Shown one piece after another: positions 34,186 through 49,360 of a stretch of 64,000 bases of DNA (its first letter is position 1; every line of letters starts with the position of its first letter). Below the pieces are notes generated by a model, which saw only the letters and a list, made by a program, of their open reading frames with translations, ran no database searches and was not told where the DNA came from. The position numbers and the translations under genes were made by a program. Source of the DNA: an uncultured delta proteobacterium (GTDB lineage: Bacteria; Desulfobacterota; Binatia; Binatales; Binataceae); contig CAWDTQ010000010.1 of assembly GCA_963805315.1 (NCBI GenBank), forward strand, positions 154,937-218,936. The letters are read 5' to 3'.

Positions 34186-37100
34186 TCAGGCTCCTGGTAT
34201 CGAGATCGCTTCGACGCGTTCGTCGCGCTGCTTCTTGGTGATCAGCGTGCGACTGAAGATTGAATAGACCGCGGGCACCACGAACAGCGTCATCATGGTT
34301 GCCGCGAAAAGTCCGCCGATGACGGCGCGCCCCAGCGGCGCGTTCTGCTCCGAGCCCTCGCCCAGCGCGAGCGCCATCGGCAGCATCCCGAGAATCATCG
34401 CGAGCGCCGTCATGATGATCGGCCGGAAACGGACGTGGCCCGCCTCGATCGCAGCCTCGACCGGTCCCATCCCTTCCTCACGCATCTCGTTGGCGAAAGT
34501 GATGAGCAGGTTGCCGTTGGCGACGCCGACGCCGACGGCCATGATCGCGCCCATCAGCGACTCGACGTTGATCGTCGTGCCCGTCAGCACCAGCATCCAG
34601 AGCACGCCGGCCAGCGCGCCCGGAACCGCCATTATGATGATGAACGGCTCGAGCCATGACTGAAAATTCGCGACCATCAGCAGATAGACCAGGACGATCG
34701 CGAGGATCAGGCCCAAGCCCATCGTCTTGAACGACTGGTTCATCGCCTGGCTCTGCCCGCGAATGACGACGTGGGTGCCGGCCGGCAGTTGGCCGAGACT
34801 GTCTATCGCCTTTTGAACCGCGCTGGTCGTGCTGCCGAGGTCGCGTCCATCGACGCCGCAATCCACGTCGATAACTCGCTGCACCGTGTAGTGCGCGACC
34901 ACCGCAGGGTCGTTGCTGTGGCTAATCGACGCGACGTTGCCGAGAAATTGTGCCTTCGGTCCAACGGTGCCGTTGGTGAGCGGCGTATTGTTGGTCCCGT
35001 TGATGTACGGCGTATTGGTGGTGCCGTCGCTGAGCGGCGCATTGGTGCTGCCGTTGGTGAGCGGAGTGTTGGCGATTTGATCGATAGACGCAGTCGTCTG
35101 AATAGGCGCCTGGGTCACGACGTTGTAATTGACGCCGTTGACCGGATCGAGCCAGTAGTTCGGCGAGATCAGGCTGTTGCCGCTCAGCGACGAGAGCAGC
35201 CCCGACGCGACCTGCTGCTCGGTTACGCCGAGCTCGAGCGCTTTGGCGCGATCGACCTTGACCTTGAACGACGGGTAGTCCAGCGGCTCCGCGATCCGCA
35301 TATCGGTGACGCCCGGAATCATCGCCATCTTCGCGGCGAGGCGCGCGGCGATTTTGTAATCGGAGTGGAGATCGTTGCCGTTGATTTGAGCGTCGATCGC
35401 CGCCGGCAGCCCGAAGTTCAGCACCTGGTTCACGATGTCGGCGGCCATGAAGTAGCCTTCGACATTCGGGAACTTCGTGCTCATCATTTCGCGGATGCGC
35501 TGCTGGTAAACGGCCGTCGGATGATGCTTCGGCTTGAGCTGGATCAGGATTTCGCCGTCCTGGGGGCCGATGTTGTCGCTCGGGAAAAACGCGATCGCGT
35601 ATGGCTGCGGCAGATCGATGTCGTCGCTTATCTGCTGCAGCTCATCGGCGGGAATTATCTGCCGGATCGAGCGCTCGATTTCGTCGACCATGACGGTGGT
35701 CCGCTCGATCCGCGTTCCGCTCGGCGCGCGCACGTGAAACTTCATGAGTCCGGCGTCGACCGTCGGAAAGAAATCCTCGCCCGTGACGTACAGCAGCGGC
35801 AGCGTGCCGACGATCATCAGCGCGGCGCAGGTCAGTGAGAGGCCGCGATGCGCAATGAACGTAGTCACCGCCGACACGTAATGCTGGCGGAGGCGCTCGA
35901 AGCCTGCTTCGAACCCGCGCAGGAACCGTCCCCAGAGTCCTGTGCCGTGGACCTCCTGGTGTCTCTCGGGCAGCAGGTAGGAGGCCATCGTCGGCACCAG
36001 CGTGCGCGACAACAGGTACGAGGTCAGCATCGCGAACACGACGGCCAGCGCGAGCGGCGTGAAAAGAAAACGCGCGACGCCGGTCAGCAGCACCACCGGA
36101 AAAAACACGATGCAGATGGAAAGCGTGCCGATGAACGTCGGCGTGGCGATCTGGTGCGCGCCATCGAGAATCGCGACCAGCAGCGGCTTGTTCATCGCGT
36201 GATTGCGATGGATGTTCTCGATCTCGACCGTCGCATCATCGACCAGCATCCCGACTGCAAGCGCAATTCCGCCCAGCGTCATCGTGTTGATCGTCTGGCC
36301 GGCAAGATGCAGGCATGCGATGGAGGTAAGGATCGAGAGCGGGATCGACGCGATCACGATCAGCATGCTGCGCGGGCGAACCGATGAATACCAGCACCAT
36401 CAACGCCACCAGCGCCGCCGCGATCGCCGCCTCGCGCACGACCTCCCATAGCGACGCGCGAACGAAGGCGGACTGGTCGAAGGTGAGCGCGACCTTCAGG
36501 CCCTTGGGCGCGACCGCGAGAATGTCCGGGATGCGCGCCGGACGGCGTCGACGACCGACAACGTCGACGCGGCCGCGTGCTTGATCACCAGCAGAAAGGT
36601 CGCAGGACGCCCGTCGATACGCACGACGTTGGTCTGCGGCTGATGCGTATCGCTGACCGGTGCGACATCGCCGAGAAAAACCGGGATGCCGTTGGTTACT
36701 TTGATCGGCAGCCGGTTGAACTCGGACACCTTGGTCGGATTCATGTTCAGGTCAACGTCGTACTCGTAGTTGCCCATGCGAGCCGTGCCCGACGGGATGA
36801 CGACGTTGGTGGTCGAGAGCGCGTTGCCGATATCCACCGGCGACAGGCCGTTGGCGTACAGCTGCTTGGGATCGAGGTTGACGACGACCGCGCGCTGAAC
36901 GCCGCCGATCGGCGCGGGCGACGAAAATCCAGGTATCGTGAAAAGCTGCAGGCGAATGAAATTCAGACCGTAGTCAAAGAGCTGCTGTTGCGAGAGCGTG
37001 TCGCTGTAGATGTTGAGCTGAGCGACCGGAACGTTCGCGGCGTTGTAGGAAATGATATTCGGGGCCGTAGTGCCCGTGGGCGCCTGGCGCAGGATTGTCT

Positions 37101-37443
37101 CCGAAACCGAGTCGATTTGCGCGATCGCGGCGCCGATGTCCGTGCCCGGTTGGAAATAAACTTTGAGCATGCCGATTCCGAGCATCGACTCCGACTCGAT
37201 ATGCTCGATTCCATCGACGGTCGTCGAATAGGCGCGCTCGCTGATGATCACGAGCCGGCGCTCCATATCGATCGCGTTGAGCCCGGGGTAGCTCCAGACC
37301 ACCATCACGACCGGCAGATTGATGGCTGGAAAAATATCGACGTTCATCAGGGTGAACGAGAGCACGCCCATCACCAGCATCAGCAGCGCCATGACCGCCA
37401 CTGAGAGCGGACGCCGAAGCGCCAGTCGAACGATCCACATCAT
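34186..37443 (-). CDS. RND efflux transporter permease subunit (frameshifted near 36370-36540)
   Basis: ALRRP..DIFPAI, LAVGMLVDDATVEIEN, RFRPIIMTALAMILGMLP and APLGRAVIGG motifs. Confidence 0.92.
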
Positions 37444-38759: not shown

Positions 38760-39102
38760 GCCAGCGCGAACTTTGGCGAAAGACCTGCGCAAAGCGGAGC
38801 AGCACGGCGCAGAGCTTGGGTTGTCGGAGGATGAGCGCGCCTTTTACGATGCGCTCGAAGTGAACGACACCGCCGTCCAGGTGCTCGGCGACGATACGCT
38901 CAAAACGATCGCGCGGGAGCTGGTTGATACGGTGCGGCGCAACGCCAGCATCGATTGGACGATCCGCGAAAACCTTCGCGCAAAGCTGCGCGTGGCCGTA
39001 AAGCGGATCCTGCGCCAATACGGATATCCGCCGGATATGCAAGAGAAGGCAACGCGGACGGTGATCGAGCAGGCGGAATTAATCTGCGCCGACGCGGCAT
39101 AG
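38760..39102 (+). pseudogene. hsdR: C-terminal (DUF3387) remnant of type I restriction subunit HsdR
   Basis: [15 protein letters not shown]...[41 protein letters not shown]; no helicase part upstream. Confidence 0.8.
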
Positions 39103-39335
39103 CCATCCTTTCGTTCCGTACACGGTCGCTTCGCGCTCTGGCTGTCGCCTAGTGTTCCGATCAGTCGCAACACCAAAGTCCCCTCCGAAAAATCGAAACA
39201 GAGGGAATTGGGCCAAATGCCCACCGTACATCTCGATTCGACCTTTCTCTGCGGGACTTCGCGCTCAGAGAACGCCGTGCACGCAGCCTTTTCACGACCG
39301 AGGGCCCGGTTTTCTCTGCATCGGCGACTCGGGTG

Positions 39336-39422
39336 CGGAGGGGGTGGGATTCGAACCCACGAGGGACTTTCATCCCTGCCGGTTTTCAAGACCGGTGCCT
39401 TCAACCACTCGGCCACCCCTCC
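39336..39422 (-). tRNA. tRNA-Ser (anticodon UGA)
   Basis: GGAGGGGTGGCCGAGTGGTTGAAGGCACCGGTC-TTGAAA-ACCGG, long variable arm, GGTTCGAATCC and acceptor CCCCTCCG. It is followed by CA rather than CCA, possibly a dropped base. Confidence 0.96.
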
Positions 39423-39978
39423 AAGCCTTCGATTCTATTAGTTTTTCGACCACTCTCCTATTACAACTTGAGCCTCTACTGCTGCGCAATTGCTACCGCT
39501 ATGGCAACGGGTTTGGTGGTCGTCCATTCGCCGGTCGTAGAGGATTTGGCGGTGATCATGAGTTTGGTGGCGGCGGCGGATTCACACAGTATGCGTTTGC
39601 CGGGCGAAGGCGCGACACTCCCAACCAGGTCCAAGTAGTGACTCGACGTTTCCGTGCCTGCGCGAAACTGGTCACTGCAACATTTCTCGAATCTGTCGGC
39701 ACCTATTGCACGCGTCGCACTCTCGGCACGTCGCCGAGATTTGGATGTTACTCACAATTCCGGCTCGCGCTATTAACGAAACAGCCCCTCGCTAGCGATG
39801 CCGGTTGCATGAAGTGACGTTACCTCCTGGGGGACAATCAGTCACAAGTCATAACACGCGATCTCAACATAGGGCGATGCGGTTGGGGCGACTCGATACG
39901 ACCGCTTGACTTCATCCGAGGGCAGTGGTTGGCTTCCGTTTGTGCTCCAGAACTGGTCAGTTGGAGCAGGTATTACGG

Positions 39979-40335
39979 ATGCGCACAGAGAGAAGTCACA
40001 TGCGCCGCTTCCTGCCCTTAGTGCTGGCGGCGTTGTTCTGTACTATTACAGTTTCGCAACTCACCAGACCGCTCTCGGCCCTGACGCTAAGCAGCGCCCC
40101 GCGACTGGCAAATGGTTACCAGAGGTTTACGCGCTACCCGGTCAAAGAGGTCGGCAACAAGCCTATCGACATTGCCGCAACGAGCGGCTACTTGACCTCT
40201 TCTCTATTGGTCGTGGCGCTCAAACGAGACCTTGCGGCCACGAGCGTGCCCGACAAGGCCGATGTGACCGAATGGCCCTCTAAGTTTCTCTTTCATCGAC
40301 GAACACCACCGCGATCGTCCGACGACACCAACTAG
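39979..40335 (+). CDS. Hypothetical protein with signal-like N-terminus
   Basis: MRRFLPLVLAALFC...; no family recognised. Confidence 0.35.
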   Translation: MRTERSHMRRFLPLVLAALFCTITVSQLTRPLSALTLSSAPRLANGYQRFTRYPVKEVGNKPIDIAATSGYLTSSLLVVALKRDLAATSVPDKADVTEWPSKFLFHRRTPPRSSDDTN

Positions 40336-40667
40336 CTTCTTCAACATATTCCCTGGAATTCGCGCTCACGTCGCGATTGAACATCTTTCGCCGATGAAAG
40401 AGTTGGCGACGGGTGCGCACGAGCGATTTCGAGCGGGAAGGCGGACGTCTCGTGCAAACGTCCTGATAGGCGAGCACGGCCTGCCCGATATGGACGTTTC
40501 GACGGCATAAATCGGTTGCATAACGTGACAATCTCGCCGACTCAGAGCATAGGTCACGCGGTGAGGTTGACGAGCCTGTGGAGAAATCAAGATCGGGTGA
40601 GTCTGCATCCTACATCGCTTCGGGACGCGGAAGGGAACGATCGACGCTTCCAGGAAGGAGAATCGCT

Positions 40668-40928
40668 ATGAAATGCGTTCTATGCGCCAAGACATCGATC
40701 GAGGTTGATATTGATCCCCTTCCTCTGAGCCCCGAGGCCCGAGAGATGCTCCAGGAGCAATCCGGGCTCAACCCCGATGAAGCTTTAGCCAATCATGCCA
40801 TCTGCCGTGAGTGCTTGGCTCTTCCGTTTGCTGAGCGAAACAAGCTGGCTGAAAAGGCGATTGAAAGAGGACGGGGCGAAGATTTGTGCGATCTGATTAC
40901 AGATGCTCTCAGAAATAGGCAGAATTGA
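40668..40928 (+). CDS. Small CxxC...CxxC (zinc-binding) hypothetical protein
   Basis: AGGAG RBS; CVLC and CREC motifs; 86 aa. Confidence 0.6.
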   Translation: MKCVLCAKTSIEVDIDPLPLSPEAREMLQEQSGLNPDEALANHAICRECLALPFAERNKLAEKAIERGRGEDLCDLITDALRNRQN

Positions 40929-41143
40929 AACCAGCACACTTCCCGAAACAGCTATCCGCCGGTACTGATGCGCGAGGACAACGCTTGGCACATAGTTGCT
41001 TCACTCTTGACAAAATTCGAAAGGGAGCGCCTCCTATCGCTCACGTCTGTGTGCATGCGCAAAACCCACCGCAACCCGCGAAATAATCGTACGTCTCAGT
41101 GCCAATTTCTACTGCTTTACCCCTGACGAGGCGGGAAGCGTCG

Positions 41144-41310
41144 TCAAGCCGACCCCGTCGTCGAAATCGTCGAAGCCGTGTGGTGTAACACGAGCACGGG
41201 ACAATGAGCTTCGCGAATGACATGCTCTGTGACGCTGCCCAGAACGAAATGCTCAAAGCCGGTGCGTCCGTGGGTAACCATTACGATCAAATCTACTCCG
41301 AGTCTCGTGA
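41144..41310 (-). pseudogene. C-terminal remnant of a universal stress protein (UspA)
   Basis: [36 protein letters not shown]; the N-terminal part is absent. Confidence 0.78.
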
Positions 41311-41534
41311 GCGGCCCGCACGATATCGGTATCAGGCACACCTGTTCTGACATCGATAACATATTGCCCTTCAGCCTTGAGGGTGTTGGGACTATCAGTT
41401 CCAGCTTGGCTCTAGCTTCAATCTACTTATGAAGAGAAGTTCAGAAGCCGCGGAAGAGGGATAGAATCGCGGCCTTAACGCTGTCGCGCGCTAGAATTCC
41501 AGTAGCGATCTACCCGTCGCTCTGTCAGCGGCTG

Positions 41535-41735
41535 CCTTGGTGACGGAGAACCCGTACCTTTGATGCCGAGCCGCGCTGGGAGATACAAAGTGCCAAGCGG
41601 TTCTGTCGAATTATGGATGACGAGTCGTTAATCGAGCGGACGAGACAACGGGTCGAGCCGGCGATTCCGAAGGATCGAATTTTCTACACGCTCAGCCGAA
41701 GCCATGAAGGTTATTACGTATCGTTGATATTTGCT
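41535..41735 (+). pseudogene. Degenerate N-terminal fragment of a sugar-phosphate nucleotidyltransferase (mannose-1-P guanylyltransferase like)
   Basis: KRFCRIMDDESLIERTRQRVEPAIPKDRIFYTLSRSHEGYY resembles PKQFC...LLEQT.RR....I...I.....H..YY. Confidence 0.5.
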
Positions 41736-41829
41736 CCTGCCCGTTGCGACGCTGGCCGCGCACCCGGTGCTGGTGAGATAGTTAGATTGATCATCTAATT
41801 GACTTGGCATCGATTAATCCGGCTGATTC

Positions 41830-44287: not shown

Positions 44288-44719
44288 TCATGCAGTCCTT
44301 CCAATCGAGACGCGGCGGCTTAGTCGAACGACATTGCGGCCGTCGCGCCGGCTGTAGTGCGCTTCGTCTGCAAGTTCGCGGATCATGTGCAGGCCCAGTC
44401 CCCCGACCGGCCTGCTATCGAGCCGCTCACTGAGATCGGGCGCCACCCTGTCCAAAGGATTGAACGCCTGGCCGTCGTCGCCGAACTCGATCGTCAGCCT
44501 GTCTCCCTCCAACTCGAGCATAACTTCGGCGATGCCCTTCGGCCTGGGTTGGTTGGGATATCCGTACCGTGACAGATTTGTAAGCAGCTCCTCGAGCACG
44601 ATAAGCATCCGCGCCCGGTCGTCCTCCGCGAGACCTTGTTCGGCCGCAAAGGTATTCACGAAGCTTTCCAGCTCGCGCATCGCGCCGTTGTGGACGCGGA
44701 CAGTCAGATGAGCGCGCAT
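44288..44719 (-). CDS. Anti-sigma factor / Ser kinase (RsbW-like)
   Basis: LEELLTN, DDGQAFNP and GGLGLHMIR motifs. Confidence 0.88.
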   Translation of the reverse strand: MRAHLTVRVHNGAMRELESFVNTFAAEQGLAEDDRARMLIVLEELLTNLSRYGYPNQPRPKGIAEVMLELEGDRLTIEFGDDGQAFNPLDRVAPDLSERLDSRPVGGLGLHMIRELADEAHYSRRDGRNVVRLSRRVSIGRTA

Positions 44720-44821
44720 CGGCAGATTCTAGCGCGCCGAGTCACGTTTGTCGCGCTGGCTTCCACGCCGGTGGCGCGCTAGGTTGCTCGGCAGAATATG
44801 GTGATTGATCGGGGGCATAAC

Positions 44822-45292
44822 ATGAAAGCCATCGCTCACAGTTGTCGCTCGACTGCAAGTGCGTGTCTCGGCATCCTCTTGATGCTGAGTTTCGCTTCCG
44901 TGGCGACCGCGCAGAGTCCACAGATTGCGCAAGTCAAGACGGTCTCCGGACAAGTGTCTATCCAGCGCGGCGGCGCAATCGTGCCGGTCAAGGTTGGAGA
45001 CCCTCTGTTCGAGAAAGACGTGATCGACACCGGCGCTGACGGCGCGATCGGGGTCACCTTCATCGACAACACCGTGATGTCTGCCGGCCCGAACAGCGAG
45101 ATGGCGCTCGAACAATACCGGTTCGATTCGAATAATTTTAAGGGCTCGATGCTGACCGACATGCGCAAGGGCACGCTCGACATGGTATCGGGCGATATCG
45201 CGAAGAGTTCGCCGACGGCGATGAAAGTCAGGACGCCGGCGGCGATCCTTGGCGTGCGCGGCACACATTTCGCCGTCGAAGTGCCCGACTAG
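44822..45292 (+). CDS. Secreted FecR-domain protein
   Basis: Signal peptide, DVIDTGADGAIGVTFIDNT and VRTPAAILGVRGTHF motifs. Confidence 0.88.
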   Translation: MKAIAHSCRSTASACLGILLMLSFASVATAQSPQIAQVKTVSGQVSIQRGGAIVPVKVGDPLFEKDVIDTGADGAIGVTFIDNTVMSAGPNSEMALEQYRFDSNNFKGSMLTDMRKGTLDMVSGDIAKSSPTAMKVRTPAAILGVRGTHFAVEVPD

Positions 45293-45297
45293 TCATC

Positions 45298-45885
45298 GTG
45301 CGACGCTCCTATCCATTGCTGCTGATGTTCTTTGCGCTTGGGTGCGCGCAACGCCAGGCGCTCTTTGTCGTCCTGCCGAATGCGGACGGCACTGCGGGCG
45401 CGATCACGGTGAGCGATAATCAGAAATCCGTGGTGCTGGATAAGCCTTACGCCCAGAGCGAGGAAAAAAGCGGCAGCGTGTCGGCAGCCACCGCGACCGA
45501 TGCGCAGCACGTGCAGCAGGTTTTCGGCAACGCTCTCGCAGCCGAGCCCATTCTGCCGGCGCATTTTCGGCTCTACTTCCTGAAGGACACTGACTCACTG
45601 ACGGCGGAGTCCGAGCAGCAGTATCGCGCGGTGTTCGATGACATCAAGCGGCGTCCGGTGTACCAGGTCGAAGTTATAGGATACACCGACACGCTCGGCA
45701 CGCCCGCACACAATCAGCAACTCTCGATGAAGCGCGCGGAGGCGATTCGCGACCGGCTGGTCCGTGACGGACTCAGCGCCAATTCGATTTCCGTCGCCGG
45801 TCGCGGCGAACTGGACCCTGCTGTGCCGACTGCTCCGCAGGTTGCCGAGCCGCGCAATCGCAGAGTCGAGATCACTGTCCGCTGA
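45298..45885 (+). CDS. OmpA-family (peptidoglycan-binding) lipoprotein
   Basis: Lipobox ALGC; GYTD..G..HNQQLSMKRA and NRRVEI motifs. Confidence 0.9.
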   Translation: MRRSYPLLLMFFALGCAQRQALFVVLPNADGTAGAITVSDNQKSVVLDKPYAQSEEKSGSVSAATATDAQHVQQVFGNALAAEPILPAHFRLYFLKDTDSLTAESEQQYRAVFDDIKRRPVYQVEVIGYTDTLGTPAHNQQLSMKRAEAIRDRLVRDGLSANSISVAGRGELDPAVPTAPQVAEPRNRRVEITVR

Positions 45886-48002
45886 CTAGCTCGACGCAGG
45901 CTCCGCGCCCGTCCAACGCACGGCAAGCAAGGTGATGTCGTCGGCCTGCTCGGCGTCGGCGGCAAATCGACGGACATCTTCATGCACGAGTTCTACCAAC
46001 GCTTTGGCGCTGGCGGTTGGCGCCGACTGGAGCAGAAGCCCGAGCCGCGCTTCCGTATAAAACGCGTCGTTGCGATCTTCGGCCTCGGTCACGCCGTCGG
46101 TATAGAGCAGAATCAAATCGCCCGGCGTGAGCTGATGGCGTTCGACAGCGTACGGAAAGTCGTCGACCGTACCGAGCGGCGGCCCGCCTTCGCCGGCGAG
46201 TTCGTTCGCCTTCGCACCCGTGCGGATGAGGAAAGGCGAGTCGTGGCCCGCGTTCACGCAGGCGAGCATCCCCGAGGCGAGATTCAGGATTCCGGCGAAG
46301 ACGGTCACGAACATCATGTCCCCTCCGGCGGCGGCCATGTCGCCGCTCGAGGCGGAAATCCTGGCGTTGGCCTCAGTGAACGCTTTTGCGAGGTCTTCGT
46401 CATTCCGCGCGAGCGCGTCACGCAGGACTTCCTTGGTCATCGCCATGAATAGCGCCGCCGGAACGCCCTTGCCCGACACGTCGGCGATCGCGAAGAAGAG
46501 CCGCCCGGAGTCGAGGAGGATGAAATCATAGAGGTCGCCACCGACCATTCGCGCCGGTTCGATGAGCGCGTAGACATCGACGTCGCGGTTTTCAGGGGGG
46601 CCGGGAAATCGATGCGGCAGCAGTCCCATCTGGATCGATCGCGCCGCACCGAGTTCGCCTTCGAAGCGAGCTTCAACCTCGCGCTCACGCTGCAAGTCAA
46701 GCTCGGCAGCGCGCAAAGTCGCGGCAAGCATCACGCCAAATGTCGCCAGCGACGCGATGCTCGGACAGAGCGCATCGACGAGCAGGTTGAAGAAGAGAAA
46801 ACATCCGAAGGCGGCGCCGACGAGCAGCACAATCAGGATGACCAACTCCGCGGTGGCGAGTGGAGGCCGACTGTAGGGCAGCGCGAAAATGGCAATCAGG
46901 CCGGCCGCGAGGACCATCACGATCTCTATCCAGTCCAGTTTCGCAGGCCGCCGCAGAAAGTTTCCGTCGATGATGCATTCAATCAACTGCGCGTGGATCT
47001 CAACGCCGGCCATGAGTCCGAGCGGCGTTTGTCGCATGTCGATCAACCCTTGGCCGATTACGCCCAGCAATATGATCCCTCCTCGCAACGTGGCCGGGTC
47101 GTGGGAACCGTCCAGCAGATCCGCCGCGGAGACATAGCGAATCTCATAGGAAGGTGTGAAGTACGGATATACGCGGCCGCGCGCGTCGGTCGGGATGAAG
47201 ACACCGTCCACGCTCCCCCCCTGACACCGTCGTGGGCCGTCAGGATTCCGAGCGCGCCCGCGCCTGTCGTAACGCGGAGCATTTCGAGTGAGAGCGCCGG
47301 CAGCAACTGGCCGTGGCCAACAACGAACAGCGGCAGACGTCGCGTCATGCCGTCCGGGTCCGGACTGTCGAGCACCGCGGCTTGTCCGCGCGCGGCGGCG
47401 GTCAGTTCGGGCAAGCTCCGCAGTAAGTAGGGGTATGTAATCAGGAACGGACGCGGGTCGCCGCCGGACTCGCGAATGATAGTGACGCGTGACGGTCCGC
47501 GCGCGGCAGGCTCTGGTTCATCCGAGGAGCCGATTCCGAGCACCGTCGGCACTTGTGAGAATGCTTCGGCGAGCGCGGCCTCATTCGATGGCAAAAGCGA
47601 AAGCTCGTGGGCAAGTGGCGCCGGGAGGTCCGGCCTCGCCTCGACCAACTTCCCGGGTGACACACGATCTGATTCGGCGAAGATGATGTCGACGCCGAGC
47701 ACGTGCGGACGGCCTGCGGCGATCTGCTGGACCAGCTTTGCGACCAGCGTTCGCGGCCACGGCCACTGGCCGTACTTCGACAGGCTCTTCTCGTCGATTG
47801 CCACGATGCGAACCGGCAGCGGATGGTAGGTGCGCGGCGCGATCTGTTGTTCCAGGTCGAAGCCGTGCATGACGAAGGTCTCGAGGAAAGCCGGATTGCG
47901 CGCACGCATCAGAACGAGCAGCCCGAGAATGATCAGAGCCGTCGCACGTCCCGGGGCCCTGAAGATCTCACGCCAGTGTGCGGACGGTCGTCGAGTGGGC
48001 AA
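45886..48002 (-). CDS. CHASE2 - TM - SpoIIE (PP2C) sensor phosphatase (frameshift near 47215)
   Basis: IVAIDEKSL..GQWPWPR and GVEIHAQ (CHASE2); VGGDLYD, ADVSGKG, NAGH, YTDGVTEA and DDITL (PP2C). Confidence 0.9.
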
Positions 48003-48015
48003 CTCAGGCCAGTCC

Positions 48016-48981
48016 TCAGAGAACGATCTCGAGTCCGTCGTAGGCGGAGGAGACCTTTAGCTGTTGCTTTTGCTCGGGACGGCTTAGCTCTTCAAAGCGG
48101 CGCGTCTCGGCCAAGATTTTTTCGAGCGTTTGATCGTCGTTGACGGGCTCATGATGGTACATCACAAGGTGCTTGACGCCGGCGAGCTGGGCGAGCTCGA
48201 CGCCGATCATATTGCTCGAATGTCCCCAGTCCTCCTTCACAGAAATCTGATCGGCGAGTGAGTACTGAGCGTCGAAAATCAGCAGGTCGGCGTCGCGGAA
48301 GAACTCGATGAAAGGATAGCTCTCATCGAGCGCTTCGTACTTGTGCTCGGAATCTGTGGAATACACCACCGTCTTTCCGTCTTTCGAAAAACGATAACCG
48401 TAGGAATCGCCGCCATGCCTCTGCGCGATCGCCCGCACCGAGAGTCCGTCAATTTCGTAGGTGCGGCTGGGCTCCAGCACGACGAACTCGATGGTCGCTC
48501 CCAGCGTTCGGAAATCAACCGGGAACGATGGATTGGACTGCTGGCGCTCGAAGGCTTCGCGCATATTCTTGTGACAGCCGTGAATGCGAATGATATTGCC
48601 GGGAATGTAGGACGGGGTGAAGAAGGGAAATCCCATGACGTGATCCCAATGAAGATGGGACATGAAAATGTTGAAGCGATTTTTTTTGGCGAAACCAAAC
48701 TTCGCCAGCACGCTGTTGCCGAACTCGCGCGCACCAGATCCCATATCGCACAGCACGTACTCGTCGCCGCCGGTGATGATTTCGGTGCAGCTGGTATTGC
48801 CGCCGTAGGTGCCGCGAACTGAAAACGGCAGCGTGGCGTCGATGAACTTGTCGATAGCTTCGGCGCTGTCGAGGTTCCGATTACGGGCCGCCAGCAACGC
48901 CTCGCGAACTTTCGTCCGCACTGCGCGATAGTTAAGCGGCGATGGCAGCGAGCCTCGGCTTCCCCAAAAACGGATTAACAT
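48016..48981 (-). CDS. MBL-fold metallo-hydrolase (RNase Z/phosphodiesterase-like)
   Basis: FWGSRGS, YGGNTSC, SHLHWDH, DAQY, WGHSS and YHHEP motifs. Confidence 0.88.
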   Translation of the reverse strand: MLIRFWGSRGSLPSPLNYRAVRTKVREALLAARNRNLDSAEAIDKFIDATLPFSVRGTYGGNTSCTEIITGGDEYVLCDMGSGAREFGNSVLAKFGFAKKNRFNIFMSHLHWDHVMGFPFFTPSYIPGNIIRIHGCHKNMREAFERQQSNPSFPVDFRTLGATIEFVVLEPSRTYEIDGLSVRAIAQRHGGDSYGYRFSKDGKTVVYSTDSEHKYEALDESYPFIEFFRDADLLIFDAQYSLADQISVKEDWGHSSNMIGVELAQLAGVKHLVMYHHEPVNDDQTLEKILAETRRFEELSRPEQKQQLKVSSAYDGLEIVL

Positions 48982-49024
48982 CGCGGTAGGTGTCCTATGC
49001 GACCGCTTGCGGCAATCCGGTCGG

Positions 49025-49360
49025 TTAGCTCAACGCCTTGATAGCTTCAGCCGTGGTATCGAAGACCTGCACTACGAATGAGAAGCGGCTGATAGCGAAA
49101 ATTTCCTTGACCATCGGGGTAAGACCGGCGACCGCGAGACGGCCGTTGGTCGCTTTCGCCTGTTTGGAGGCCATCATAAGCGCACGCAGGCCCGCGCTCG
49201 AGATGTACTCGACGCGAGAGAAGTCGATAAGAACTTTGCTTCCGGCGGATGCGACGCTGTCGAGCAACTTGGGTTGAAACATCGTGCTCGTATCATTGTT
49301 GATGCGCCCCACCGGGATGAGGACTGTGATGTCGCCTTGGCGCTGCTCGTTGATTTCCAT
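49025..49360 (-). CDS. STAS-domain anti-sigma factor antagonist (RsbV-like)
   Basis: YISSAGLRAL with the conserved phospho-acceptor Ser. Confidence 0.9.
   Translation of the reverse strand: MEINEQRQGDITVLIPVGRINNDTSTMFQPKLLDSVASAGSKVLIDFSRVEYISSAGLRALMMASKQAKATNGRLAVAGLTPMVKEIFAISRFSFVVQVFDTTAEAIKALS

Follow-up and report, generated by a model that had tools for sequence, protein, structure and literature searches.

A six-gene cassette common to soil bacteria of several phyla points to a metallo-hydrolase as the probable output of a partner switch

Which protein does a partner switch control when no sigma factor is encoded beside it? Partner-switching modules, such as RsbU-RsbV-RsbW and SpoIIE-SpoIIAA-SpoIIAB of Bacillus, are textbook regulators of sigma factors, and to our knowledge only a few partner switches have enzyme outputs, of which SiaABCD is the clearest case. 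The question is raised by a locus in a 64,000-nucleotide stretch of contig CAWDTQ010000010.1 (hereafter the window) from a Candidatus Binatus genome, for which a sequence-only reading had proposed that envelope-sensing proteins act through a PP2C phosphatase, with an embedded metallo-β-lactamase-fold (MBL) hydrolase as a possible regulated output. We find that the locus is a six-gene signalling cassette common to soil bacteria of several phyla, and that an MBL phosphodiesterase, instead of a sigma factor, is most likely under the control of its STAS protein, judging from conserved gene order and natural gene fusions.

All six products were matched by Pfam where that reading had placed their genes. 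The series opens on the minus strand with a single-domain STAS protein of 111 aa (49025..49360; Pfam STAS, E 2.9e-17), the presumed phospho-switch, followed on the same strand by an MBL-fold metallo-hydrolase of 321 aa (48016..48981; Pfam Lactamase_B_2, E 3e-16), the proposed regulated output, and by a CHASE2-PP2C (SpoIIE-type) inner-membrane phosphatase (45886..48002; Pfam CHASE2 and SpoIIE, E 1e-49), which is divided between two ORFs in the window. On the plus strand lie a FecR-domain secreted protein (44798..45292; 164 aa ORF; Pfam FecR, E 2.4e-9) and an OmpA-like peptidoglycan-binding lipoprotein of 195 aa (45298..45885; Pfam OmpA, E 7.1e-19) with the lipobox ALGC and Cys16, while an RsbW/SpoIIAB-like serine kinase of 143 aa (44288..44719, minus strand; Pfam HATPase_c_2, E 7.8e-23) completes the set. 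The order and orientation are hence STAS>MBL>CHASE2-PP2C> <OmpA<FecR RsbW>, with FecR and OmpA, as had been noticed in the window, on the opposite strand within the STAS-MBL-PP2C...RsbW series; its relatives share this layout. The OmpA and phosphatase genes are convergent and their stops adjoin as described, TGA at 45883-45885 being followed by CTA (the reverse complement of TAG) at 45886-45888, and the kinase gene is divergent from FecR. A promoter and terminator scan gave no excess over shuffled sequences (1 promoter observed vs 1.2; 3 terminators vs 5.4). A tRNA-Ser gene lies 5 kb from the cassette in the window; in the nine Binatus loci (17.5 kb fetched for each), just one has any tRNA.

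Is the phosphatase gene functional? The sequence-only reading had considered all catalytic motifs intact, and this stands for the PP2C, MBL and kinase motifs and for STAS Ser55, but the phosphatase ORF itself is split in the window. ORF 1 (47058-48002, 314 aa) holds the N-terminal part of CHASE2, and ORF 2 (45886-47211, 441 aa), which overlaps it, holds the C-terminal part of CHASE2 and the SpoIIE domain, covering profile positions 2-191 of 192. Conservation across 10 sequences was seen for the PP2C motifs GGDLYD, DVSGKG, TDGVTEA and DDITLL. Where the frame shifts, the minus strand has seven G residues in a row (47215..47221), and an eighth G restores the phosphatase frame. A true frameshift, i.e., a pseudogene or a phase-variable G-tract that turns the sensor on and off, would account for a window that has G7 where G8 is required, and slippage is possible at homopolymer tracts; we nevertheless regard it as very improbable. 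Three public contig sets (X1, X2, and X3) have an extra C behind 47214, the 8-G allele resting in each run on one contig of low depth (3.3 for X1), and record 4 of X1 overlaps the window over 267 nt with 0 differences besides that extra base. In the alignment, both closest orthologs have one base more than the window at this site, where they carry CAGGGCGGC and CGTAGCTGC, so the G-tract is not conserved. A same-genus ortholog of the phosphatase occurs in 12 of 24 genomes (11 of 23 without the unpublished genome G024), and 10 same-genus orthologs are intact, with called ORFs of 699-720 aa collinear with both window pieces. A second gene, AcrB, is also split in the same window, and the source genome is a metagenome bin of 16 contigs. 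Given the independent contig that is otherwise identical over 267 bases and the 10 intact same-genus orthologs, the split is most probably a homopolymer assembly error at the G-run.

The remaining switch components resemble those of RsbU/V/W-type modules, of whose hallmarks the cassette has the SpoIIE/PP2C phosphatase, the single-domain STAS protein bearing a phosphorylatable Ser, and the HATPase_c_2 kinase, but no linked sigma factor. The STAS protein exceeds the cut-off of the NCBIfam anti-anti-sigma model ant_ant_sig (TIGR00377; 65.1 vs 53.45 bits), and its Ser55, within the motif YISSAGLR, shows at least 90% conservation across 50 STAS proteins of the cassette; from our own motif alignment, we take this residue to be the phospho-acceptor position of SpoIIAA and RsbV. 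The kinase exceeds the PF13581 cut-off (81.3 vs 27.4 bits) and has the N, G1, and G2 boxes, and across 33 kinases of the cassette, E44, N48, D81, and G109 are invariant, while G106, G107, and L108 show at least 90% conservation. Its likeness to RsbW (E 4.9e-9) and SpoIIAB (9.5e-4) is weak, both matches being below the NCBIfam cut-offs.

How widely is the arrangement shared? An MBL motif scan yielded 593 confirmed loci, and the counts that follow are from the best 80 of these, which span at least seven phylum- or class-level groups. Among the 64 of these loci that are adequately flanked, all six genes occur in 42, while 13 lack the kinase only, 5 are reduced to STAS-MBL-CHASE2/PP2C, and the last 4 comprise other subsets, so that the six genes are indeed conserved together in other genomes, as the proposed neighbourhood check had asked. 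The adequately flanked loci come from Binatota, Alpha-, Beta-, and Gammaproteobacteria, Methylomirabilota, Dormibacterota, and Verrucomicrobia. Nevskia soli DSM 19509 (locus L072) is a cultured carrier of the full set, and all nine fetched Ca. Binatus loci have the six genes in order, with differing flanks. Because identical order and orientation recur across phyla, the arrangement is, by sequence comparison, far beyond chance. There is no seventh cassette gene in these 80 loci, the largest flanking family occurring in 8. STAS lies directly upstream of MBL in 79 of the 80, and the 80th is without upstream DNA. Of five genomes checked in which no kinase gene adjoins the other cassette genes, four encode small HATPase_c_2 proteins elsewhere, and all five have a HATPase_c_2 match over the cut-off, the best one of genome G241 lying in a 922-aa frame.

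The pairing of STAS with MBL extends to single polypeptides. By Pfam, 11 of 12 mid-length proteins carry both domains, with the verified fusions including STAS-MBL, MBL-STAS, TIR-STAS-MBL, MBL-STAS-Pkinase(-AAA-TPR), and MBL-CHASE2-SpoIIE, and 144 of 378 fetched homologs have the two together. In a FastTree phylogeny with no support values other than SH-like ones, STAS-MBL fusions branch from within the cassette clade. As natural fusions join STAS and this MBL subfamily with either domain first, and Ser/Thr kinases take part as well, MBL is the probable output, and the earlier proposal to that effect is strongly backed by these natural fusions. In fused forms from Chloroflexi, an unrelated Hanks-type kinase takes the place of RsbW. 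Those fused to the kinase often have Ile or Val at the residue aligned with Ser55, with a Ser one position earlier, so phospho-control of the fused Chloroflexi STAS domains is not assured; a phospho-motif regular expression matched 19 of the 144 fused STAS domains, a pattern too strict to be informative.

Adjacency and fusion show a functional link at the sequence level, but which protein regulates which is not given by them. The RsbW-like kinase could itself bind and inhibit the MBL enzyme, with unphosphorylated STAS capturing the kinase and so freeing MBL, as RsbV frees SigB. All three classical switch parts are there with intact motifs, and the kinase belongs to the cassette not only in the 42 complete loci but also in three smaller gene combinations that lack part of the sensor set (4 loci, including L045, L052, and L059). 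We consider this wiring rather unlikely, however, as STAS-MBL occurs without an adjacent kinase in 13 plus 5 of the 64 loci, and the fusions that recur are those of STAS with MBL, no HATPase_c_2-MBL fusion appearing among the Pfam strings listed for 120 longer homologs. The substitution of a Hanks-type kinase for RsbW in Chloroflexi likewise fits a pure kinase role.

A more conventional reading, in which the kinase serves as anti-sigma factor to a sigma factor whose gene lies elsewhere, MBL being an accessory or passenger, would follow the best-known role of HATPase_c_2/STAS/SpoIIE sets, and the weak RsbW/SpoIIAB similarity mentioned above agrees with it. The genome has nine matches to the sigma-70 family, and it is only 87.7% complete, so the missing part could hold a sigma factor or further switch proteins. 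Yet none of the nine lies on the contig of the window, a single one has region 3 and is presumably the primary sigma factor, and the 80 loci show no conserved sigma gene up to 4.5 kb from the cassette, which bears out the earlier remark that the locus has no sigma factor. Further, of all cassette proteins MBL is the best conserved (within-genus identity of 73-87% vs 50-73% for the kinase), is never lost beside STAS, and is fused to it. A classical sigma switch is thus decidedly unlikely, and control of MBL by STAS stays our preferred reading. In the genome as assembled, the cassette supplies the only SpoIIE, the only HATPase_c_2 over the cut-off, and the only small STAS protein, and if our reading is true, it would be the sole partner switch of this Binatus genome.

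What kind of enzyme would such a switch control? The MBL ligands H109, H111, D113, and H114 (HxHxDH), H189, D210, H254, and H276 do not vary among 76 diverse homologs, whose identities are 33-87%. An AlphaFold2 model from this 76-sequence alignment, which replaced one from just 10 close sequences (pLDDT 59.9), reached pLDDT 96.7, and its best Foldseek matches were RNase Z (1y44), YhfI (6kns), ELAC (1zkp), and PhnP (3g1p), the RNase Z, YhfI, and 1zkp chains among the top ten rows having target-normalised TM-scores of 0.74-0.82. Sequence identity to solved structures is 15-19%, with RNase Z the best structural match at 17%, and a sequence search of solved structures gave weak RNase Z and YhfI matches only. 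The enzyme models confidently as a member of the RNase Z/YhfI/PhnP-like phosphodiesterase branch. It shares the fold and the full HxHxDH/His/Asp/His set of RNase Z/ElaC, YhfI, and PhnP (1y44, 2cbn, 6kns, 1zkp, and 3g1p), and its GHSS loop can be aligned to the one in E. coli ZipD. In contrast to these relatives, it falls below every curated family cut-off, is partnered with STAS, and has, following the first strand, a helical insert of about 50 residues peculiar to the family, which in the model is an N-terminal helical pair (residues 18-56) and the only obvious insert. Scores were far below the cut-offs of the RNase Z model TIGR02651 (62.5 vs 292.95), the Apyc1-type cyclic-nucleotide phosphodiesterase model NF041851 (50.3 vs 400), and the curated PhnP model, and PF23023 was absent from the MBL Pfam scan at E ≤ 0.01, though it was among precomputed hits. 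We rejected a specific Apyc1 relationship, as a viral fold library gave generic MBL matches only (E about 1e-7). The suggestion of a cyclic-nucleotide phosphodiesterase, made from the sequence, therefore becomes just one among several equally weak substrate options. An anti-phage defence reading was rejected as well: PADLOC matched none of the five other cassette proteins, and the OmpA domain matched only generic ZorB/MotB models.

The MBL family is large, with 851 representatives at E ≤ 1e-30 and thousands of members. In a plasmid search, we found one distant Leptospira homolog without STAS, and no sign that plasmids carry the cassette. The possibility that MBL lies upstream of or beside the switch, i.e., that it makes or destroys a ligand for STAS or the phosphatase, or is an RNase merely scaffolded by STAS, draws on the lack of direction in fusion and adjacency and on stand-alone distant homologs in other contexts, e.g., that of Leptospira interrogans (36% identity), beside trmB and a PilZ protein. 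We give it little credence: in the multidomain fusions, MBL is N-terminal to kinase, AAA, and TPR signalling modules, at the end where the effector of multidomain signalling proteins usually sits, and the cassette has no second conserved gene that could be the output.

On the input side, the proposed joining of a FecR/OmpA-lipoprotein/CHASE2 module to a PP2C output agrees with the Pfam domains and with an OmpA lipobox conserved in 10 of 10 Binatus orthologs. The likelier start of the FecR protein is the ATG at 44822, and its signal peptide, read from the translation, ends ATA-QS; FecR is kept beside OmpA in cassette loci. The best NCBIfam matches of the OmpA lipoprotein are YiaD, PA1041, and YfiB, all below cut-off. 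That FecR proteins accompany CHASE2 cyclases, as stated in the sequence-only reading, can be seen in the same genome, where a FecR-like gene encoding a secreted protein lies upstream of a CHASE2 adenylate/guanylate cyclase and forms a second FecR-CHASE2 pair besides that of the cassette. A 332-aa ORF beside the cyclase was rejected as an Arg-rich off-frame artefact, the real neighbour being on the other strand. The cassette may be the degradative counterpart of this second sensor.

Together, these observations suggest a route from envelope to enzyme. The secreted FecR protein and the outer-membrane OmpA-like lipoprotein would act on the periplasmic CHASE2 domain, potentially signalling the condition of the envelope or peptidoglycan, or the presence of a periplasmic ligand, by analogy with YfiB-YfiR-YfiN. 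In the cytoplasm, the PP2C domain would remove, and the RsbW-like kinase add, a phosphate on STAS Ser55, and one STAS phospho-state, as conservation and fusions hint, would bind and gate the co-transcribed MBL enzyme, which might then cleave a nucleotide-type signal or RNA. We hold it somewhat better than an even bet that the locus is a self-contained, sigma-factor-independent partner-switching cassette with trans-envelope input and enzyme output, in which the phosphatase split is an assembly error. The more specific and general idea, that phospho-STAS directly gates an RNase Z-like MBL enzyme as a widespread, undescribed partner-switching output, through which the FecR/OmpA/CHASE2 sensor would turn cell-wall or periplasmic conditions into nucleotide-messenger or RNA cleavage with no transcription factor, is tentative, its chances falling a little short of even. 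We found no paper on this STAS-MBL/CHASE2-PP2C wiring, and hence no sign of the already characterised homologous loci that the sequence-only reading had named as a refutation. If true, the model would extend partner switching to a post-transcriptional or second-messenger output, give a function to an MBL family tied to the switch by cross-phylum gene order and repeated fusion, and offer a tractable model for CHASE2 input from FecR-like and peptidoglycan-anchored partners; with N. soli as a cultured carrier, it is directly testable.

How does the cassette compare with known systems? With RsbU/V/W and SpoIIE/AA/AB of Bacillus, it shares the SpoIIE-type PP2C, the HATPase_c_2 serine kinase, and the single-domain STAS protein in which Ser is conserved; it differs in being without a linked sigma factor, in a phosphatase apparently gated by periplasmic CHASE2 with FecR and OmpA partners, and in embedding an MBL hydrolase to which other lineages have STAS fused. 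Its proposed logic has its nearest precedent in SiaABCD of Pseudomonas aeruginosa, in which the membrane PP2C SiaA and the kinase SiaB set the phosphorylation of SiaC, a small switch protein that controls an enzyme, SiaD, and not a sigma factor (PMC7647112, PMC8457831). SiaC is phosphorylated on Thr68, whereas the cassette switch is a canonical STAS protein (PF01740) with Ser, and the output is a GGDEF cyclase in place of the MBL phosphodiesterase, the cassette sensor being CHASE2 with FecR and OmpA (PMC7647112, PMC8457831). Membership is not indicated, as the SiaA model scored 38.7 vs a cut-off of 700, and the cassette has no DUF1987-type switch or GGDEF domain. YfiBNR of P. aeruginosa combines a Pal/OmpA-like lipoprotein of the outer membrane with a soluble protein in the periplasm and a signalling enzyme of the inner membrane (PMC4887326, PMC4655355); this tripartite trans-envelope architecture is alike and nothing further, the cassette having a FecR-type protein instead of YfiR, a CHASE2-PP2C enzyme instead of PAS-HAMP-GGDEF, and a YfiB model score of 65.6 vs a cut-off of 128. 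Closest on the sensor side are FecR-CHASE2 pairs, in which a secreted peptidoglycan-linked FecR partner is encoded beside a CHASE2 membrane sensor as here, e.g., the PA4035-like LysM-FecR protein with a CHASE2 histidine kinase in the Burkholderia 'BiofilmReg' operon (PMC5192318), while the CHASE2 cyclases CyaD1/D2/K of Sinorhizobium meliloti require the outer-membrane protein NsrA (PMC13001267). Compared with these systems, peptidoglycan binding in the cassette would come from a separate OmpA lipoprotein and not from LysM on FecR (PMC5192318), and the output domain, in contrast to a histidine kinase or cyclase, is a PP2C phosphatase (PMC5192318, PMC13001267).

Pfam identified the product of each of the six genes that the sequence-only reading had grouped within 44288–49360 of the window, namely a STAS protein (49025–49360, minus strand), a metallo-beta-lactamase-fold hydrolase (MBL; Lactamase_B_2; 48016–48981, minus), a CHASE2 plus SpoIIE/PP2C protein (hereafter the phosphatase; 45886–48002, minus), an OmpA-domain protein (45298–45885, plus), a FecR-domain protein (44798–45292, plus), and an RsbW-like HATPase_c_2 kinase (44288–44719, minus). 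Their orientation gives three transcription units: STAS-MBL-phosphatase on the minus strand, FecR-OmpA on the plus strand and convergent with the first, and the kinase gene, which is divergent from FecR. The OmpA protein carries an ALGC lipobox, kept in 10 of 10 orthologs from Candidatus Binatus (the genus of the window's organism), the FecR translation includes a signal peptide, and the ortholog alignment places in the phosphatase, from the N-terminus on, one membrane helix, the CHASE2 domain (periplasmic), and three further hydrophobic helices, with a charged linker leading to the PP2C domain. The linker ahead of PP2C is 7 residues shorter in the window phosphatase (45886–47211, minus); these residues, present in 9 of 9 orthologs, correspond to alignment columns 448–454 in the charged linker, past the last membrane helix.

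The OmpA stop (TGA, 45883–45885) touches the phosphatase stop (45886–45888), as had been claimed, and of the 61 loci having both genes, 39 have stops that overlap or are directly adjacent (−66 to 0 nt; for instance, 17 loci overlap by 14 nt and 6 by 4 nt, and 10 have 0 nt), 18 have stops 1–105 nt apart, and 3 have them more than 1.5 kb apart, with one value being a duplicated-hit artefact. Ends that overlap or abut leave no room for a terminator, and from the convergent junction one may suspect that the phosphatase and OmpA operons are linked by antisense read-through or by coupled termination of transcription.

The phosphatase had also been counted as one gene, but it is not a single ORF in the window: it lies in two frames, with the shift at a seven-G run on the minus strand (47215–47221). 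An eighth G yields ...GVRGGSVDGVF..., in register with ...GVQGGSVDGVL... of the closest ortholog, and the frame is open in 10 same-genus orthologs (704–730 aa). Public contigs from three runs, aligned to the locus, have an extra C behind 47214, and the contig from one of these sets (X1) is otherwise identical to the window over 267 positions. The AcrB/RND transporter gene (34186–37443, minus) is also split into two ORFs, of 315 aa (profile positions 1–302) and 726 aa (positions 359–1020), with the frame change near a short C run (~36366–36380), which points either to a further indel error of the assembly or to a second pseudogene. Given the open orthologs, the X1 contig with its extra C, the split AcrB, and the nature of the genome (a metagenome bin of 16 contigs, 87.7% complete), we consider it highly likely that the phosphatase frameshift is a homopolymer assembly error, leaving a small possibility that the gene is truly inactivated or phase-variable. 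Wherever an analysis called for the full-length phosphatase, it was represented by natural orthologs and never by a mended window sequence.

Elsewhere in the window, a tRNA-Ser(TGA) (39335–39422, minus; region 38844–41800) is followed by ~2.4 kb of lower G+C (0.54–0.56 vs 0.60–0.66 nearby), in which the ORFs gave no Pfam match. Foreign DNA may have inserted at this site, which is 5 kb away from the cassette.

The closest loci are those of Candidatus Binatus and Binataceae from soil metagenomes. A phosphatase ortholog occurs in 12 of 24 same-genus genomes when one unpublished genome (G024) is counted and in 11 of 23 without it, and the order and orientation of the six genes are identical in 9 of 9 fetched same-genus loci, while the flanking genes vary. 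Beyond the genus, an MBL profile run against a single genome of each species led to 593 confirmed loci, of which the best 80 (55–89% identity) were analyzed; these belong to Binatota, Methylomirabilota/Rokubacteria, Dormibacterota, Eremiobacterota, Verrucomicrobia, and Alphaproteobacteria (Stellaceae, Kordiimonadales, and Minwuia), Betaproteobacteria (Burkholderiales and Casimicrobiaceae), and Gammaproteobacteria, including the cultured Nevskia soli DSM 19509. Distribution is patchy, with the MBL found at E ≤ 1e-60 in 10 of 201 sampled genomes of the phylum, i.e., 9 of 142 genera.

In 79 of the best 80 loci the gene immediately upstream of the MBL is STAS, and the remaining locus ends before the upstream DNA. 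The 64 of these 80 with sufficient flank show the genes conserved together: all six genes are present in 42, only the kinase is absent in 13, and the rest have STAS-MBL-CHASE2/PP2C only (5), the same three plus the kinase (1), PP2C-STAS-MBL-kinase without CHASE2 (1), or STAS-MBL-kinase (2). Because the profiles used to find neighbor genes derive from Binatus proteins, kinases that have diverged may have escaped detection; ORFs adjoining the kinase-less loci are unrelated, and all five of the kinase-less-locus genomes that were checked have a HATPase_c_2 match over cut-off elsewhere, in small frames (151–257 aa) in four and with the best match in a 922-aa frame in the fifth (G241). No seventh cassette gene emerged, as no further flanking family reaches more than 8 of the best 80 loci; the cassette is therefore self-contained and, as the sequence-only reading had held, without a sigma factor.

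Judged by motifs, the cassette has every part of a partner switch: the PP2C metal motifs are intact in the ortholog alignment, the kinase N, G1, and G2 boxes are intact (across 33 sequences, E44, N48, D81, and G109 never vary, and conservation is at least 90% at G106, G107, and L108), and Ser55 of STAS, the presumed phospho-acceptor, is conserved within YISSAGLR. This is the only partner switch in the 87.7%-complete genome, whose sole SpoIIE domain, sole HATPase_c_2 over cut-off, and sole small STAS protein are those of the cassette (the other STAS match lies in a 538-aa frame). Of the nine sigma-70-family genes of the same genome, all lie on contigs other than the window's and just one contains region 3, and thus no SigB/SigF-type factor was found as a classical client in the 87.7% of the genome that is covered.

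The MBL is the best conserved cassette protein (73–87% identity within the genus vs 50–73% for the kinase), and its metal ligands are invariant across 76 sequences with identity down to 33%. It belongs to a large family, with 6627 representatives at E ≤ 1e-3 and 851 at E ≤ 1e-30, and a search for longer homologs, with architectures verified by Pfam, recovered STAS-MBL fusions (P0241, P0244, P0246, P0269, P0267, P0252, and P0122), MBL-STAS fusions (P0247, P0296, P0316, P0342, and P0377), a 608-aa TIR-STAS-MBL protein (P0121), an MBL-CHASE2-SpoIIE protein (P0215), and MBL-STAS-Ser/Thr kinase proteins with or without AAA_16 and TPR (P0128, P0131, P0130, and many Chloroflexi proteins). By our own profiles, 144 of 378 fetched homologs have both STAS and MBL domains, in a set enriched for long proteins and hence not a frequency. 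Giant Chloroflexi proteins of 1190–1700 aa (within P0126–P0240) combine an N-terminal MBL with STAS, a Hanks-type kinase, AAA_16, and TPR. In a FastTree phylogeny of 123 MBL domains (SH-like support only), STAS-MBL fusions are nested in the cassette clade and kinase-fused forms make a separate clade; supported branches force at least two origins of STAS-MBL, and the two domain orders require independent fusions. These architectures are the strongest evidence that STAS and MBL may work together physically. Further, the replacement of the cassette kinase by an unrelated kinase in fusions suggests that its role is to phosphorylate STAS. At the position matching Ser55, the kinase-fused proteins often carry Ile or Val. 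Distant family members occur in other contexts, as seen from a stand-alone homolog (36% identity) on a Leptospira interrogans plasmid record (NZ_CP092665.1, 5995–7408), which lies between divergent trmB and a gene for a PilZ-domain protein and lacks a STAS neighbor.

An AF2 model of the MBL from the 76-sequence alignment (pLDDT 96.7, pTM 0.93) had as Foldseek neighbors RNase Z (1y44, 2cbn), YhfI (6kns), the Bacillus anthracis ElaC homolog (1zkp), human ELAC1 (3zwf), and PhnP (3g1p, 6b9v), at 15–19% sequence identity; among the top ten matches, the chains of RNase Z, YhfI, and 1zkp reach a target-normalised TM-score (TMt) of 0.74–0.82. A viral fold library gave nothing specific. Because this placement agrees with sub-threshold NCBIfam matches (RNase Z, E 3e-17; Apyc1-type cyclic-nucleotide phosphodiesterase, E 2e-13; PhnP) and with the JGI automatic name (phosphoribosyl 1,2-cyclic phosphodiesterase), the modeled enzyme is very probably a phosphodiesterase, for which a cyclic nucleotide, a linear nucleotide, or an RNA end are possible substrates. 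The first of these is what the sequence-only reading had suggested, and nothing beyond these matches supports it.

While the gene content and motifs, the topology features, the synteny across phyla, and the fusions and fold have been shown, the mechanism, in three steps, is what we infer. First, FecR and the OmpA lipoprotein would modulate CHASE2, by analogy with YfiB-YfiR-YfiN (PMC4887326) and with the LysM-FecR/CHASE2 kinase operons (PMC5192318). Second, the phosphatase and kinase would set the phosphorylation of STAS Ser55. Third, one STAS state would gate the MBL, for which SiaC-SiaD offers an analogy (PMC7647112). The same genome holds a second FecR-CHASE2 pair (L106, contig 7, 5592–8793, minus), in which a CHASE2 adenylate/guanylate cyclase of 742 aa has the gene of a FecR-like secreted protein (285-aa ORF) directly upstream and on the same strand. 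Nearly all 24 same-genus genomes have a ~750-aa CHASE2 paralog.

Full-text searching found no literature that links CHASE2 to FecR and OmpA, CHASE2 to partner switching by a PP2C, or STAS to an enzyme of the MBL fold, and papers beyond that search may exist. The MBL falls outside RNase Z and Apyc1, and the cassette outside SiaABCD and YfiBNR, with scores under the cut-offs and different partners, while classical sigma-controlling switches of the RsbU/V/W type differ in having a sigma factor. The cassette would work like a combination of a sigma-controlling switch, SiaABCD, and YfiBNR.
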